Positions 5,052 to 12,086 of a stretch of DNA of 12,086 nt are shown one piece after another. Made by a program: the position numbers and the translations under genes. The DNA comes from a virus. Lineage: Duplodnaviria; Heunggongvirae; Uroviricota; Caudoviricetes. Below the pieces are notes generated by a model. It was given only the letters and a program-made list of their open reading frames with translations. It did not search any database and had not been told where the DNA came from. The first letter of the stretch is position 1; each line of letters begins with the position of its first letter. The stretch lies in IMG/VR virus record IMGVR_UViG_3300029517_000086; one strand, 5' to 3'.

Positions 5052-5269
5052 ACAAAACAGAGAAGAGCATCACCGGACGACGGGCTCATAACCCAATCCA
5101 TCCAGGCGGCTGCCACCGCAGGTGTTCTTCACTGTTTTGTGGAGAAACTAACCGCCCCTACGGGGGCATTCATGGAAATGTAATTGACTCGACTCAATAA
5201 TCGCCGGACGGTGAGGGCTTCCTTTTACCCGAATTCAGCGCGGTGCAGCGCATATACGTGGAGAACAAA

Positions 5270-5806
5270 ATGTCATTTATTAAAACTTTTTCTGGGAAGC
5301 ATTTTTATTATGACAGGATAAATAAAGACGACATCGTTATTAACGATATCGCGGTTTCCCTTTCAAATATCTGCCGCTTTGCCGGTCATCTTTCGCACTT
5401 CTACAGCGTCGCCCAACATGCGGTTCTTTGCAGCCAGCTGGTGCCGCAGGAATTTGCTTTTGAAGCGTTAATGCATGATGCAACAGAAGCGTATTGCCAG
5501 GACATTCCCGCACCACTGAAACGCCTTCTTCCTGACTATAAACGGATGGAAGAAAAAATAGACGCCGTAATCCGTGAGAAATACGGGTTACCCCCAGTTA
5601 TGAGTACACCCGTGAAATATGCCGATCTCATCATGCTGGCAACCGAACGCCGCGATCTCGGGCTTGATGATGGCTCTTTCTGGCTTGTACTGGAAGGTAT
5701 CCCGGCAACAGAGATGTTCAACGTGATTCCACTGGCACCGGGCCATGCCTACGGGATGTTTATGGAACGTTTTAAAGAGCTGCATAAGATGCATAAGCAA
5801 TCCTAA
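5270..5806 (+). CDS. HD-domain phosphohydrolase (YfdR-like 5'-deoxynucleotidase family)
   Basis: HD-domain signature residues: H in SVAQHAV and HD in LMHDATEAY. Start chosen at ATG 5270 (MSFIKTF...) with GGAG (5259-5262) upstream, rather than the ORF-track GTG at 5243. Confidence 0.8.
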   Translation: MSFIKTFSGKHFYYDRINKDDIVINDIAVSLSNICRFAGHLSHFYSVAQHAVLCSQLVPQEFAFEALMHDATEAYCQDIPAPLKRLLPDYKRMEEKIDAVIREKYGLPPVMSTPVKYADLIMLATERRDLGLDDGSFWLVLEGIPATEMFNVIPLAPGHAYGMFMERFKELHKMHKQS

Positions 5807-5860: not shown

Positions 5861-6106
5861 ATGCTTCAAATGCTGACACTTGAGGAATGGGCTGCGGAAA
5901 AATTTAGGAGTAACCCTCCAAGTGTGTCCACATTGCGTCGTTATGCTAAGCAGAATTTATTTTGTCCACCGGCAATGAAACAAGGTCGACTATGGCGAGT
6001 ACGTGAGGACGCAGAGTTAGTTGGGGAATTAGTTACTCCTGTCATTAAGAAAAGTGATTCTATTATTCTACAAAGGATTTTAAGTAATGGCAGCCAGACC
6101 ACGTAA
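5861..6106 (+). CDS. xis: Excisionase (lambda Xis family)
   Basis: MLQMLTLEEWAAEKF...STLRRYAKQNLFCPPAMKQGRLW parallels lambda Xis MYLTLQEWNARQRRPRSLETVRRWVRECRIFPPPVKDGREY. Sits immediately upstream of int and overlaps it by 20 nt. Confidence 0.85.
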   Translation: MLQMLTLEEWAAEKFRSNPPSVSTLRRYAKQNLFCPPAMKQGRLWRVREDAELVGELVTPVIKKSDSIILQRILSNGSQTT

Positions 6107-7214
6107 GAATAATGTTTCAGTCCCGAACTTGTATCCGCTCTATAGCAGAAAAGTAAATAAAGTTTATTGGCGATATAAGCATCCAGTGACCGGGAAGTTT
6201 CATTCTTTGGGCACAAACGAAGCTGAAGCCATTGCTATTGCCACTGAGGCCAATACACGCCTAGCTGAGCAAAGAACCCGGCAGATTCTAGCTATCAGTG
6301 ACAGGATCGCAACCAGCAAAGGAAAAGCAATCACAACGTCAACCTGGTTAGATCGCTATCAAGCAATCCAGGAAGACAGACTGAAAAGTGGCGATATAAA
6401 GCTCAACACCTATAAACAGAAAGCCAAACCAGTATCCTTGCTCAGGGAACGAGCAGGACTGAAGTTGATATCAGCCGTTGATGTCAGAGATATAGCACAA
6501 TTACTTGATGAGTATATCTCTGCTGGACAGCCTAGAATGGCCCAGGTCGTAAGGTCTGTATTGATCGATGTGTTTAAGGAAGCACAGCATTACGGCGAAG
6601 TTCCACCAGGGTATAACCCTGCTCTTGCAACGAAGCAACCCAGAAGGAAAATTAGCCGTCAACGCCTCAGCCTAGAAGAATGGAAAAAAATATTCGATAT
6701 CGCAGACGCCGCTCATCGTTATATGGGAAATGCCATGCTCCTAGCTTTGGTCACTGGGCAGCGTTTAGGAGATATATCCAAAATGAAATTTAGTGATATT
6801 TGGGAGGATCATCTTCACGTCATTCAGGAAAAGACCGGGAGCAAAATCGCTATCCCTCTTTCTTTACGTTTGAATGCTATCAACTGGTGTTTACGTGATG
6901 TAGTAGCTCGCTGCCGTGACTACGCAGTCAGCCCATACTTAGTGCATTTTTTCCGTACTACATCACAGGCTGAACGTGGCGCACAGGTAAAAGCTAATAC
7001 ACTAACGATGAACTTTAGCAAGGCACGTGATCTGGCAGAAATTGATTGGGGTACTGGAACTCCTGCAACTTTTCATGAACAAAGATCTTTATCTGAACGT
7101 CTTTACAAGGAACAAGGGGTTGATACCAGAAAGTTACTGGGCCATAAAACCCAGCAGCAAACCGATCGTTACCATGATGACCGAGGCAAAGGATGGAGCA
7201 AAGTAGCGTTGTGA
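6087..7214 (+). CDS. int: Tyrosine site-specific integrase (lambda Int family)
   Basis: 375 aa. N-terminal arm-binding region (PNLYPLY...YWRYKHPVTGKFHSLG) parallels lambda Int (PNLYIRNNGYYCYRDPRTGKEFGLG). Catalytic-domain blocks LVTGQRLGDISKMKFSDI, HEQRSLSERLY and LLGHKTQQQTDRYHDDRG match the lambda Int R...HxxR...Y signature. Confidence 0.95.
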   Translation: MAARPRKNNVSVPNLYPLYSRKVNKVYWRYKHPVTGKFHSLGTNEAEAIAIATEANTRLAEQRTRQILAISDRIATSKGKAITTSTWLDRYQAIQEDRLKSGDIKLNTYKQKAKPVSLLRERAGLKLISAVDVRDIAQLLDEYISAGQPRMAQVVRSVLIDVFKEAQHYGEVPPGYNPALATKQPRRKISRQRLSLEEWKKIFDIADAAHRYMGNAMLLALVTGQRLGDISKMKFSDIWEDHLHVIQEKTGSKIAIPLSLRLNAINWCLRDVVARCRDYAVSPYLVHFFRTTSQAERGAQVKANTLTMNFSKARDLAEIDWGTGTPATFHEQRSLSERLYKEQGVDTRKLLGHKTQQQTDRYHDDRGKGWSKVAL

Positions 7215-7302
7215 GTATTTAAGAGTCCCAACGCCACCTTGAACTCACAGCCAATAGCAGTCATCATGCTATGCTAATGAACAGCAACAGGCCAATAGTT
7301 AC

Positions 7303-7785
7303 TTGATAAAAAATATGATAATCAATCAACTCAAAATCACGTATAACGACGATATTTTATCTGCACTTTCAGGAAAAGTGTTTCATGTTACTACTGCAGC
7401 TAATATGCTCCTTATAAAACAATCTGGAGCTTTGGTTCCAAATTCGGAATTATTGCAATTTTCAAGATTTGGAAATACATCTAATGGTTTTTTTAGGCAG
7501 CGCAATTGCGTGTCTTTTTTCGACTATAGATGCTATGGGACTAGATTCTGGAAAGAGCATGCTTATAAATGTTTTCCAACTCAGATCCTTAAACGCGAAC
7601 AAGGTGATAAGATTTCAATACTGTTTCTTCACGAAAGCAAGTTCGAGAAACTGATTCCATGGACTTCTTGGAAAGAAGAAAAAGCATGGGGCGAGAGGGT
7701 TGTCCCGTATGTTGAGACTGGATATAAAGGCATTGTTTCCCTAAGCGATATTACCGAAGAATTAGTTGTTGAGTTTGACTGCTAG
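7303..7785 (+). CDS. Hypothetical protein (156-160 aa), AT-rich cargo gene between int and the host junction
   Basis: Open frame of protein-like composition, no recognisable motif. Start is uncertain (TTG at 7303 or ATG at 7315), both with weak RBS. AT-rich by eye compared with the phage core. Confidence 0.5.
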   Translation: MIKNMIINQLKITYNDDILSALSGKVFHVTTAANMLLIKQSGALVPNSELLQFSRFGNTSNGFFRQRNCVSFFDYRCYGTRFWKEHAYKCFPTQILKREQGDKISILFLHESKFEKLIPWTSWKEEKAWGERVVPYVETGYKGIVSLSDITEELVVEFDC

Positions 7786-8170
7786 CAAAGGCGCACTGAT
7801 TGGTAACGACTAAAGAACATAATTAATGAATGAGACAGACAATCAATAGGATAACATTAATATTTTTCCGGCATCCGTGCCAATTGGAATATACCATTTA
7901 AAACATAGAAGCAATCCCGAATATTCATTTTCTACTCAAAGAGGATCTTTATCCCCCACTTATCTCCTCGACCCAAATTTATCCTGAGATTATCTCTCTC
8001 GTTTTCATATGGCGTGACTGTCAGTCTCAGACTTTAAGGATTTCCTAACCCCAAAAGCAGAAAATAAACATTGGGCATTAAATAACATTAAATTAAAAGT
8101 CATTACATTAATTGTATATTAGCACTAACGGTAATGTTTTTTAGATATTATTTACATCACCGCAATGATT

Positions 8171-8206
8171 CCGGCTGAGCAGAAATAATGCGTCCCGCTC
8201 AGCCGG
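8171..8206. other. 10-bp inverted repeat (hairpin) just downstream of the 1040-aa gene
   Basis: ccggctgagc (8171-8180) / gctcagccgg (8197-8206) with a 16-nt loop; no clear T-run on either strand. Confidence 0.4.
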
Positions 8207-8211
8207 ATTTG

Positions 8212-11200
8212 TCAGAGGTGTTCGAACCTAGCCACCACAGCACCTTCAATTTCTAGCACTTGATTCCAGGTCGTGGTCACCGAGCCAGTCAGAGGATCTT
8301 GACTGTCTGTCTGCCATGAGGAGTTGAAAAGCAGGCCGTCAGGATCGCTCTGCAGGTGAAGGTTGCCGAAGATACTGTTCCGGACGAGCAGGGAATAACA
8401 TCTCTCAGAAGCAAACTCCTGATAGATTCCACAGCCGTTGATTCTGATTGGCATCAGGCCTCCCGGACGCGACGACCTGTCCAGCGTGATCCCCAGTTCC
8501 GCATGCCTGTCCGCGTGGTAAATCAGTTCACGCAGGTCACTCCCTAGACGGGTGCCGAAAAATATAAGCGTAGAGTCGTCATTATCGACGGTCATCTCCC
8601 GTAAATGCTTCAGCAGTCCCTTCACGTCGCGAACGATTTCGGTCCGGAGAGGCTGCAACTGACTCAGGCCTCGGTAAACATCACGAAGCAGAGAATATTT
8701 GACGTCAGAAAGCGATGTCAGATCACCGTAGACATTGCTGTTGATCCCCCGAGCAATGATATTTTTAGGCATGGTTCCTCGAACCGACCTAGCTGTCCAT
8801 GGTATCTCCCCGTTCTCAGAGTTGCTGTAAGAAAAACGGGAAAGCAGTGCATCCTGAGCAAGCATTTCGGGCAGTTCGTGGGTCAGAGTCAGATCGGTTT
8901 TTTTCAGCCGTTCTGTATCAATCTCTGCGTTAAGAAGTTCATCATGCAGGCACTGGCTGAAAGCCAGAATATAGGCATCGAGAGTTTTATTGAAAGAAAT
9001 AATTTTCGCTTTAAAAACCATCTCAGACATTAAATATCCGTCTGGGGAACTGTCTTCACGACGTTTCATCCCATGAAGCTGATTTATAATTTGTTCCTTT
9101 CTGGAATACGTGAAGAGATTGTCATTCAGAGCATCCTGCACGCGTCGGCTGACAGGCTGCGGCCCAGCGGAAAGATAAAAAGCAATATCAGCGTAACTGC
9201 CGTACAGATTCCTTACATCTTCATAGGTTCCCATATAAATGCGACCGGTTATAGTTTCGGTTTCATTAAAGGCTGAAAAGGTTTTTATGAGGCCGGACAG
9301 CGCTTCGTACCAGCCGTTCTCATGACGATTGTTCCGGTATTCCAGCCTGATGATGCTGTCAATAATATCAGTGGCTGACTTAAATGAAGGTGTCATGCGA
9401 TCGTGTGCACCAGTAGGATAGACAAGCTCTGAATTCAGGAGTCGCTTAACAACGCTTTTAAGGGGGACATTCTTTTTCTGCCTGATATGAGAAAGAATAT
9501 AGCTTGCAGTCAACAAACGCACGTCAGCTAGGGCGTTATAAAATACCGTGTTCAGCGTCTTATTTTCTGAATATTCATTACCTCGCAGTACAGCCTGCCA
9601 GTCATGTCCTTCAGAAGTCTGCGTTAATAAGGCTGGTGTGATGAAAAAACTGTGCCAGCGGTACTGGTCAAAATGCTCTTCAAAGTTATTCCGGCCAAAC
9701 CAGAGCAACAGCATATCTGAGCTGTGTTCTGAGGCGAAACGGTCATCTTTCATGACTGCTGTTATGACTGTCTGAGCAGTGTAGAAAAGATGAGACAGCA
9801 GGCAAGCCGGGTCATTATCAGACCGTTCCCCGTTACGGTTATGAATACGTCGCCACATGTACCAGCTTTCCCATTCACCGATAAAATCTTTAACAAGCTC
9901 CCGGTGACGCAGCTCCTGGCCAACCGTCAGATTTTCTCCATACCCCGTTTTCCAGTCTATCAGCGCATGCCAGACGTGGAAAAGAGACTGAATATATTGC
10001 TGAAAATCGCCCAGCTGGCAGCTGTCGGCATCACGATACACCGAGAATGGGATGGTTAATACATTACGAAAATATTCCCCTGTGGTTTCCAAAGATTTTA
10101 CAGTAACGTGACTGAATGAGTAAAAGTCTCTATGGAATGACTGGCTGAATGTCACCATAAATCCTGTATCACTACATTCATCAATATAGTTACCGTCAGC
10201 ATACCGGAAACTTTTTTTCAACGTTGTGTAGGTGTCCACCAGCCTGTCTGTTGCACTGATGAAGGAACTAATATTTCTGTCTTCCAGAGCATCGTAGGCC
10301 TCGCCATAAAAATCACGGGTAATGTAGCGGTATTCTTTCCAGTTTTTTTTAAAACCTCTGATAAAGCATCGCCTGAACAAAAACGGCCACCAACAGGGAA
10401 AAATCACATCCGTAGATGCGAGCAGAGTTATTGTATCCTGCTTACGACCCAAGGATGGGAGTAAAATTATTTTTCCTACGCTGTTATTAACTGGTCGCAG
10501 AAATCGTAACAGAAAATTAAATAACCGCATCCGGACATCGGTAATATCTTTCCCCTCACCTAAATGATGAGGTAACAAATTCATATTCTCTTCACCTGAA
10601 ACATACCAGCGGAGGACCTCAATCCCATTGATGTAATTTTTATCGATATAATTCCCTGGGTGCTGAAGCCATGAGTTTATCCGCGAATGAAGAATGAAAT
10701 TTTCGACAATCTCTGACTGAAAATATTTTAACATAAGGCGGTCGCGTTTTTTATCGTCAAGAATATTCAGGCTTGAAATAAAAAACCATATAGATAGCAC
10801 GATGTTGAACAGCATCCAGATTAAGGCTGTAATGGCAAAAGCGGTCGTCCGGTATTTATCGCCGGCAGATGAAAATAGCCCACCAATCACTATAAATGCA
10901 GCCAGTGACAGCCCGCTGAGCCCGGCAAACATGTAACCCGAATGCAACTGATAGGCAGACTGAATATGTATGCGGGACGATTTTTTCTGAAAAAGCACGC
11001 TGATAAGGCCCACAACCAGCGGAAAAACGATCCCGATAATCGTCAGCTGAGCGCCCAGCAGGTTTGACATCCATGCCGGCAGCTCCGTAACACCTTTCAG
11101 ATAGGAAGCGGCAAAAGAATGAAATTCTGGACGAAAATATTCCGCAACAATGACTGCACCTACTGCCGTTGCCCAGAGCAACAACATGGCCTTCAGATAG

Positions 11201-11334
11201 TGCGTGGAGCAGTAAACCTGCGCTCTCTCAAGCAGACTCCAGCGATGTTTTTTATACACCGAATTACCTTTAAGGTTCCGTTTGAGATCGGCTCTGACTT
11301 TAGCTGAAAGGCGTGTAAAGAATATGCCAGACAT
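8212..11334 (-). CDS. Large membrane-anchored protein of unknown function (1040 aa): four predicted N-terminal TM helices plus a roughly 850-aa soluble domain
   Basis: Single uninterrupted 3.1-kb ORF. ATG at 11334..11332 with AGGAG 4 nt upstream. Hydrophobic helices at about residues 48-66, 92-115, 134-155 and 164-188. No nucleotide-binding, nuclease or other motif recognised by eye. Sits in the int-to-att cargo slot. Confidence 0.85.
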   Translation of the reverse strand: MSGIFFTRLSAKVRADLKRNLKGNSVYKKHRWSLLERAQVYCSTHYLKAMLLLWATAVGAVIVAEYFRPEFHSFAASYLKGVTELPAWMSNLLGAQLTIIGIVFPLVVGLISVLFQKKSSRIHIQSAYQLHSGYMFAGLSGLSLAAFIVIGGLFSSAGDKYRTTAFAITALIWMLFNIVLSIWFFISSLNILDDKKRDRLMLKYFQSEIVENFILHSRINSWLQHPGNYIDKNYINGIEVLRWYVSGEENMNLLPHHLGEGKDITDVRMRLFNFLLRFLRPVNNSVGKIILLPSLGRKQDTITLLASTDVIFPCWWPFLFRRCFIRGFKKNWKEYRYITRDFYGEAYDALEDRNISSFISATDRLVDTYTTLKKSFRYADGNYIDECSDTGFMVTFSQSFHRDFYSFSHVTVKSLETTGEYFRNVLTIPFSVYRDADSCQLGDFQQYIQSLFHVWHALIDWKTGYGENLTVGQELRHRELVKDFIGEWESWYMWRRIHNRNGERSDNDPACLLSHLFYTAQTVITAVMKDDRFASEHSSDMLLLWFGRNNFEEHFDQYRWHSFFITPALLTQTSEGHDWQAVLRGNEYSENKTLNTVFYNALADVRLLTASYILSHIRQKKNVPLKSVVKRLLNSELVYPTGAHDRMTPSFKSATDIIDSIIRLEYRNNRHENGWYEALSGLIKTFSAFNETETITGRIYMGTYEDVRNLYGSYADIAFYLSAGPQPVSRRVQDALNDNLFTYSRKEQIINQLHGMKRREDSSPDGYLMSEMVFKAKIISFNKTLDAYILAFSQCLHDELLNAEIDTERLKKTDLTLTHELPEMLAQDALLSRFSYSNSENGEIPWTARSVRGTMPKNIIARGINSNVYGDLTSLSDVKYSLLRDVYRGLSQLQPLRTEIVRDVKGLLKHLREMTVDNDDSTLIFFGTRLGSDLRELIYHADRHAELGITLDRSSRPGGLMPIRINGCGIYQEFASERCYSLLVRNSIFGNLHLQSDPDGLLFNSSWQTDSQDPLTGSVTTTWNQVLEIEGAVVARFEHL

Positions 11335-11740
11335 AGCGCTCCTGCTCTTGGGGGGAAAATCTCTCTATCATACGTCCTGTTTGTATAGTTTTCCTTTAAA
11401 AATCTCTACATTGCTTACTAGTGTTCAACTCAAACAACTTCTGGATTTACCTTATTCGGTTTTCATTTTGAGAAGAGAGATTGATGCGGAAATGCACTAA
11501 TGATGGAAGATTAATGTGGAATAAGCATTATTGTTTTGAAAGCATCCATCGATTGAACTCACAACACAAAACAGACCTAAATATTAGCGAGTATCCGCCA
11601 GCAATAATCATAAAACGCGGAGGTACCCCTGATTGGAACCTGGCAATAGAACTACCACCGGACCATCCAGCCTCCCCCAAACTACCAAGGGGTTTTGATA
11701 ACTTGTTTTGATAAAATTTTGATAACCGTTAGCAGCCTAA

Positions 11741-11769
11741 CAAAAAAACGGGAGCGTTACGCTCCCGTT
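11741..11769 (-). terminator. Rho-independent terminator of icd
   Basis: Hairpin cgggagcg-tta-cgctcccg (11749-11767), followed on the minus strand by a 7-nt U-run (plus-strand aaaaaaa at 11742-11748), about 25 nt past the icd stop. Confidence 0.7.
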
Positions 11770-11792
11770 AATGAATTTAACAAATCACCGCA

Positions 11793-12086
11793 TTACATGT
11801 TTTCGATGATTGCGTCACCAAACTCTGAACATTTCAGCAGCTTAGCGCCGTCCATCAGACGTTCGAAGTCATAGGTTACGGTCTTGGCGTTGATCGCGCC
11901 TTCCATACCTTTAACAATTAAGTCAGCCGCTTCAGTCCAACCCATGTGGCGTAACATCATCTCAGCGGAGAGAATAATAGAGCCAGGGTTTACTTTGTCC
12001 TGACCGGCGTATTTCGGCGCAGTACCGTGGGTGGCTTCAAACAGGGCGCATTCGTCACCGATGTTTGCACCAGGGGCGATACCGAT
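11793..12086 (-). CDS. icd: Isocitrate dehydrogenase (NADP), 3' portion (C-terminal 97 codons plus stop)
   Basis: Minus-strand translation gives ...[90 protein letters not shown], the E. coli Icd C-terminus as recalled. The gene continues beyond the window end. Confidence 0.95.

Follow-up and report, generated by a model that had tools for sequence, protein, structure and literature searches.

Lit, a peptidase of 297 amino acids (aa) that cleaves EF-Tu, mediates abortive infection in response to a peptide of the T4 major capsid protein; in Escherichia coli K-12 its gene lies on the e14 prophage, in the cargo slot between the integrase gene intE and icd. RexB, KwaA and S_4TM are membrane proteins with four transmembrane (TM) helices each. 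In the fused sensor-effector CapRel, the trigger is a phage capsid protein, which acts directly (bioRxiv 10.1101/2022.05.30.493996), while SaPIbov5 Ccm, an HK97-fold protein of a satellite, becomes part of the helper procapsid by co-assembly (PDB 7rwz, an entry also found among the structure matches of the present analysis). The DNA considered here is a stretch of 12,086 nucleotides (IMG/VR virus record IMGVR_UViG_3300029517_000086; hereafter the window), in which the same intE-icd slot carries a gene for a membrane protein of 1040 aa. The window comes from an E. coli chromosome; it is 100% identical to strain AMSHJX01 and to nine further complete genomes (5,426 searched). An initial annotation had read this gene as the cargo of an icd-integrated prophage and as a possible phage-exclusion or abortive-infection effector, in loose analogy to RexB.

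The analysis points, with a probability of roughly 0.4, to a stand-alone, horizontally mobile inner-membrane protein of anti-phage or anti-mobile-element immunity, in which a capsid-like domain would act as sensor and a TM module as effector of abortive infection. The TM architecture, predicted topology, predicted fold, conservation pattern and genomic context were computed here; the ligand, the signal and the action of the effector are what we infer.

The gene occupies positions 8212-11334 of the minus strand, with an ATG start and a TGA stop (8212-8214), and its product is listed in RefSeq as WP_024232539.1, 'hypothetical protein'. A Shine-Dalgarno motif, AGGAG, can be read on the same strand at 11339-11343, which is -9 to -5 relative to the ATG, with a gap of 4 nt. 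The start codon of this open reading frame (ORF) is considered sound because the N-terminus is conserved among homologues, M1 being nearly invariant within the consensus MxGxxxxSL. At the level of sequence comparison, homologues of the same length in hundreds of clusters confirm a real gene rather than a chance reading frame. A search of 5.8 billion proteins returned 116 clusters at 90% identity, all of 1030-1100 aa, labelled hypothetical and carrying no Pfam domain. An exhaustive profile search of 1.84 billion representatives (50% identity) gave 792 matches at E<=1e-3, including 339 at E<=1e-30. Nearly all of these representatives are 1030-1150 aa long, and they come mostly from Gammaproteobacteria; because nearly all of them match over the full length, the architecture is conserved from end to end. 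A second profile search with distant members recovered the same set and brought in no relative that was annotated or domain-swapped. Named members belong to Enterobacterales, Vibrio, Photobacterium, Aeromonas, Shewanella, Pseudoalteromonas, Alteromonas, Psychrobacter, Bermanella, Aliikangiella and Sedimenticola, with one Desulforhopalus, and the distribution over 17 species representatives is patchy. Truncated or split copies were seen in the species-representative genomes of Pantoea allii, P. rodasii, Alteromonas, Psychrobacter, Edwardsiella anguillarum and Vibrio, and such broken sequences suggest frequent decay.

Searches of family libraries gave no assignment. The 1040-aa protein has no match in Pfam, NCBIfam, PADLOC, PHROGs or the PDB sequences (the latter searched with the single protein and two profiles), nor in a tblastn search of 50,697 phage genomes. 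The defence models were those of PADLOC-DB 2.0 (2023), in which the large protein reached no family at E<=1. A set of 42 distant relatives likewise had no Pfam match and only one PADLOC match, at chance level. The names 'MFS transporter' and 'chromate transporter', attached to a few members in UniRef or NCBI, were rejected since they have no Pfam support; they look like mis-annotations caused by the hydrophobic TM region. No paper on the family, nor on any defence protein with an HK97-fold domain, emerged when the literature was searched by accession, context and HK97 combined with defence.

The hydropathy scan of the protein reveals four hydrophobic segments, at approximately residues 48-66, 93-115, 134-156 and 166-188. 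The full-length AlphaFold2 (AF2) model, built from a 48-sequence alignment, is confident, with a predicted local distance difference test score (pLDDT) of 84.3 and a predicted template-modelling score (pTM) of 0.71, and it places the TM helices at 46-66, 82-114, 134-155 and 160-192. The first 47 residues contain 10 K/R and 2 D/E, and by the positive-inside rule this basic N-terminus argues for an N-in/C-in inner-membrane topology, in which the C-terminal part of ~850 residues would be cytoplasmic. The ribosome-binding site, the four N-terminal helices and the membrane anchor with a big cytoplasmic part, all of which the initial annotation had described, are recovered, the topology as a prediction. 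The protein is divided as follows:

11200-11334, minus strand: residues 1-45, basic cytoplasmic N-terminal helices, with N24 at least 90% conserved
10759-11199, minus strand: residues 46-192, four-TM module, the most conserved part and the proposed effector
10639-10758, minus strand: residues 193-232, long linker helix leaving the membrane (the helix spans 194-224 in the full-length AF2 model)
10345-10638, minus strand: residues 233-330, small beta-rich domain, the fastest-evolving segment (238-328 in the full-length AF2 model)
9115-10344, minus strand: residues 331-740, large all-alpha domain (the all-alpha region spans 344-770 in the full-length AF2 model)
8215-9114, minus strand: residues 741-1040, predicted HK97-type capsid-protein-like domain

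In the AF2 model, the C-terminal part consists of two long helices (771-827) followed by an alpha/beta body (~835-1040). Modelled alone, residues 741-1040 reach a pLDDT of 92.5 and a pTM of 0.85. A Foldseek search of this domain against predicted viral structures gave 95 matches at E<=1e-3, the best with an E-value of 6e-8 and a probability of 1.00; the named matches are almost all major capsid or head proteins, at moderate TM-scores of 0.4-0.46. Two models, two methods and two libraries agree in predicting that the C-terminal ~300 residues adopt a very divergent HK97-type capsid fold. The initial annotation had recognised no motif in the soluble part and had advised a predicted model with Foldseek. 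The first statement holds for the sequence but no longer for the predicted structure, in which the last ~300 residues resemble capsid proteins. A weak capsid signal was also sought in 17 C-terminal domains with Pfam at E<=10; the lone SU10_MCP match (1/17, E 0.026) was not counted as evidence. For the small beta domain (233-330), no structural match was identified.

Conservation was evaluated in an alignment of 103 sequences reaching down to ~15% identity. Four residues are invariant, namely P105 and N177 in the TM module and W545 and R698 in the alpha-domain. Conserved at 90% or more are N24, Q96, V107, Y128, G138, S140, L144, W173 and F184 in the N-terminus and TM part, as well as F358, W488, E489, W491, H515, D540, N600, D604, R663, Y700 and F834 in the soluble part. 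The conserved residues listed for the alpha-domain also include W455 and W461, and its G697-R698-x-Y700 motif lies in a flexible loop (692-702) that AF2 models with low confidence. When whole proteins are ~45% identical, per-domain identity is ~72% in the TM module, ~35% in the capsid-like domain and ~30% in the beta-domain. The polar and proline residues inside the helices argue that the TM module is more than an anchor, and the charged residues and tryptophans clustered in the alpha-domain speak for a biochemical or signal-transducing role that has been conserved. The beta and capsid-like domains, both fast-evolving, are candidate recognisers of a variable ligand. A conserved TM module next to fast-evolving beta and capsid-like domains is the pattern that would be expected of an effector joined to a sensor.

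These features allow a mechanism to be proposed. The cytoplasmic capsid-like domain would serve as bait or sensor for phage head assembly, engaging freshly synthesised capsid protein, capsomers or other assembly partners; according to the proposal, it could do so because its predicted fold is that of phage head proteins. The engagement signal, possibly passed on through oligomerisation, would be relayed through the alpha-domain (E489, H515, D540, D604, R663, R698) to the four-TM module (Q96, P105, S140, N177). The module would then compromise the inner membrane and thereby abort the infection. Tethering of capsomers to the membrane may additionally block head assembly directly.

A more specific and somewhat doubtful version of this mechanism concerns the origin of the sensor. 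It supposes that a phage capsid fold was captured and fused to a membrane effector, giving a one-protein immune receptor based on capsid mimicry, in which the domain joins or caps nascent capsomers in the cytoplasm by homotypic-style recognition and the TM module then collapses the inner membrane. Were this the case, the receptor would be the first known HK97-fold protein whose role is that of neither a virus capsid nor an encapsulin shell. It would also represent a new principle of bacterial pathogen sensing, in which a copy of the virus's own building block is used as bait.

The genomic setting of the gene constitutes the second body of evidence. The intE integrase family is present in 501 of the 5,426 E. 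coli genomes, and the eight e14-like prophages examined hold eight different contents in the slot, which in the window extends from the intE stop to the attL arm (7215-11564). The contents are as follows:

AMSHJX01 (identical to the window): the 1040-aa gene and ORF156
MS1679: DarT and a macro domain
EC8: AAA ATPase and HNH
STEC17-183: AAA ATPase and a small protein (188 aa)
GF31: AAA ATPase and Dam methylase
RM7190: DUF262 and a small protein (216 aa)
Ecol_545: one 348-aa orphan
K-12: lit, ymfE and ymfD

Judged qualitatively and by an operational criterion, this content pattern is that of a defence-cassette hotspot. Defence systems of E. coli ride mostly on mobile elements (PMC10121019), and prophage hotspots hold defence systems, the TM proteins found there being viewed as suicide effectors (PMC9122126). 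The slot, known for Lit, can be regarded as a general exchange site for defence cassettes and as a useful place to seek further systems. Several of the gene pairs in the other e14-like prophages are themselves unannotated candidate systems.

The family gene is always solitary, and its neighbours vary from locus to locus. Among 258 neighbouring ORFs at 22 loci, no family recurs at more than three loci, and the one that does so at three is a resolvase. The carriers in IMG/VR include another lambdoid prophage, in which the gene again stands beside a 375-aa lambda-type integrase, and P2-like prophages, in which it follows gpD. It is also carried by a P4-like satellite beside an AAA_15/AAA_21 ATPase, by an integrative and conjugative element (ICE) between HsdR/McrBC and transfer genes, and by an E. 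coli ICE-like island with DUF4238, HipA and RES. Further carriers are plasmids with a TrlF-type ATPase, an 'abortive infection protein', DUF4238 and PIN_12, and a Vibrio island with SIR2 and PIN_12; a homologue on an IncF plasmid is 39% identical. When 148 neighbours were scanned together, they yielded integrases (6), resolvases (4), AAA_21/AAA_15, DUF4238, PIN_12, PLDc_2, McrBC and S_4TM, and the same neighbours matched the PADLOC models AriA, PtuA, GajA, Old, HEC-01A, AbiLi and DrmC. The association with defence genes was judged qualitatively, across the loci examined. A partnership with PIN_12 was considered and rejected as too sporadic, this gene being found immediately downstream on one Pantoea plasmid (6774-7916) and 6 kb away on one Vibrio island (19294-20382).

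The suggestions of the initial annotation on genomic context can be evaluated against these data. The icd-integrated, e14-like prophage with int-proximal cargo is confirmed by the icd 3' end, the attL arm and intE, and the recommended comparison of what such prophages carry between att and int yielded the diversity described above, including DarT with macro domain, AAA with HNH, DUF262 and Lit. The slot had been taken to hold a single gene; it does hold the large gene, but ORF156 (7315-7785) lies there as well. The defence interpretation is partly supported: it gains from the accessory position in a defence-type hotspot and from defence-type neighbours, but not from PADLOC, which had been recommended and gave no defence-family match for the protein, nor from Pfam.

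Several points weigh against an immune function of this kind. The defence role is a candidate function, and neither the protein nor its 42 relatives show homology to known defence proteins in PADLOC. At some loci, such as a Pseudoalteromonas chromosome and an IncFII plasmid, defence genes are not evident nearby. The likeness to capsid proteins exists at the level of the fold, with sequence identities of only 4-13% at the TM-scores given above, and the structures behind it are predictions; sequence profiles of Pfam, PHROGs and the PDB sequences detect no capsid or encapsulin family. That the TM module forms a pore is assumed, and the strongly conserved alpha-domain could itself be the effector, for instance an unrecognised enzyme. 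In addition, the resident prophage presumably also makes an HK97-fold capsid, so self-triggering would have to be avoided.

The absence of a known phenotype and of known defence homology, together with the neighbourhoods that contain no defence genes, would also be compatible with an accessory of mobile elements unrelated to defence. Such a protein could serve element maintenance, influence host physiology as a 'moron' or form a membrane-anchored encapsulin-like assembly, having hitch-hiked into variable cargo slots, and encapsulins demonstrate that HK97-fold proteins can have cellular roles. This explanation is unlikely, although it survives better than the other alternatives. It is opposed by the recognised defence modules that fill the same slot in sister prophages, and by the occurrence of the gene alone in unrelated types of element. 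The neighbour comparison over 22 loci found no associated portal, protease, terminase or encapsulin-cargo genes, and no such partner is conserved. Patchy distribution and decayed copies are, moreover, typical of defence genes.

The predicted HK97 fold itself gives rise to a second alternative, namely direct and non-suicidal interference with head assembly. The capsid-like domain would co-assemble with the capsid protein of the invader and poison the capsomers or tether them to the inner membrane, and the TM module would be mainly an anchor or docking site. The entry of SaPIbov5 Ccm into the helper capsid (7rwz) provides a precedent, and interference with assembly is a known defence strategy in the Tai systems (PMC11364771). 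However, a module that only anchored the protein would not have to be its best-conserved segment or keep polar and proline residues invariant, and the conserved alpha-domain of 400 residues is left unexplained. This alternative is judged rather improbable, and abortive infection through a capsid-like sensor is still preferred.

Superinfection exclusion or another entry-stage defence, in which the inner-membrane protein would block or attack incoming DNA or the injection machinery and the capsid fold would merely be a scaffold, is the least probable explanation: the inner-membrane location, carriage on prophages and the example of SNIPE, a membrane-bound defence acting during injection (bioRxiv 10.1101/2025.11.03.685801), are in its favour. 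Against it stand the small size of classical exclusion proteins, the cytoplasmic placement predicted for almost the entire mass of the present protein and the lack of any nuclease or other catalytic family in the Pfam and NCBIfam searches; a capsid-like domain evolving this fast, too, points to a ligand that is specific and variable.

The remaining features of the locus are those of an e14-type insertion, and the RefSeq annotation of the identical locus agrees with the context of icd, intE and xisE:

5243-5806, plus strand: gene for a YfdR-like HD-domain 5'-deoxynucleotidase, directly upstream of xisE
5861-6106, plus strand: xisE, according to the domain scan and the RefSeq annotation
6087-7214, plus strand: intE, lambda-type tyrosine integrase of 375 aa with Arm-DNA-binding and Phage_integrase domains
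7315-7785, plus strand: ORF156, second cargo ORF, a 156-aa orphan (WP_024232540.1, 'hypothetical protein') between intE and the large gene and convergent with the latter
8170-8207, minus strand: stem-loop of 15 bp that begins 5 nt past the stop of the large gene
11565-11792, minus strand: e14-type attL arm downstream of icd, a block of ~230 bp with ~92% identity to other E. coli, including K-12 e14, containing the icd terminator
11693-11725, minus strand: three direct repeats TTATCAAAA with spacings of 11 and 13 bp, just past the icd terminator and inside the attL arm
11747-11769, minus strand: icd terminator
11793-12086, minus strand: 3' end of icd (isocitrate dehydrogenase), the integration target

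The TTATCAAAA repeats are probably the arm-type binding sites of Int in attL, a putative assignment. The stem-loop has a folding energy of -33.1 kcal/mol (z = -5.3), and 0/200 shuffles fold equally well. It could be a terminator or a hairpin that stabilises the transcript, and no U-tract follows it on the minus strand. Beyond the large gene, on the side of the hairpin, there is a non-coding, AT-rich gap of 426 bp (7786-8211). An Rfam scan of the window gave no match. The YfdR-like gene is shared by the majority of the e14-like prophages examined but is missing from some, K-12 e14 among them. Strain AMSHJX01 also has head genes of another prophage (small terminase subunit, decoration protein and major capsid protein) just beyond phoQ, at locus coordinates 25252-28887, ~8 kb from icd on the chromosomal side.

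ORF156 lies in the part of the window with the lowest GC content (~39%) and has no match in Pfam, PADLOC, NCBIfam or PHROGs. A two-gene system consisting of the large protein and ORF156 was considered and rejected, since no ORF156 homologue was found near the family gene at other loci.

If the proposed role were confirmed, it would define a defence family that has no detectable sequence relation to known systems and is carried by prophages, satellites, ICEs and plasmids. Members of the family are found in E. coli, Salmonella, Enterobacter, Edwardsiella, Vibrio, Shewanella and others. It would also add a new use to the HK97 fold, which so far comprises only the capsids of tailed viruses and herpesviruses and the encapsulins, and would offer a testable model of how a cell can detect head assembly directly.

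With respect to described systems, the family appears to lie outside the known kinds: it agrees with the HK97 superfamily in predicted fold but not in sequence or context, and its function is a prediction. The superfamily proteins compared include T4 gp24 (1yue), lambda gpE (7sj5), HK97 gp5 (3qpr/1ohg) and linocin-type encapsulins (7bcv/7k5w). What is shared with them is the predicted three-dimensional fold; sequence similarity is absent, and here the domain follows ~740 other residues, four TM helices among them, in one polypeptide. Of the capsid homologues encoded by phage satellites, SaPIbov5 Ccm differs in being a soluble, full capsid homologue that serves satellite packaging, with neither a membrane anchor nor a large alpha-domain, and no sequence homology was detected.

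Among membrane-bound defences, RexB, KwaA of Kiwa (PMC11785009), SNIPE and S_4TM of CBASS are likewise inner-membrane anti-phage components. In contrast to the 1040-aa protein, which has no conserved partner, they are small or contain known domains, and most depend on partners. Kiwa is defined by KwaA together with the DUF4868 protein KwaB, and neither a PADLOC or Pfam match nor a conserved neighbour of this kind was found. As regards the TM effectors of CBASS and Pycsar (S_4TM, SLATT), no Pfam effector domain is present in the protein or its 42 relatives, and no neighbour such as a cyclase is conserved. The analogy to RexB drawn in the initial annotation rests on the number of TM helices, with no direct RexB sequence comparison run; at 1040 aa the protein is far from the small RexB, and no RexA-like partner is conserved. 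This analogy should be dropped in favour of the capsid-mimic hypothesis; the defence reading is plausible and is now based on comparative evidence.

Two of the closest known systems respond to capsid protein. Lit shares the cargo slot, but its peptidase (U49) domain is absent from the 1040-aa protein according to Pfam and NCBIfam. CapRel is a soluble, toxin-antitoxin-derived tRNA pyrophosphokinase whose sensor has no capsid fold, and it is not homologous to the protein described here. It is nevertheless likewise a single polypeptide that combines a conserved effector with a variable C-terminal sensor, and its trigger is the phage major capsid protein.

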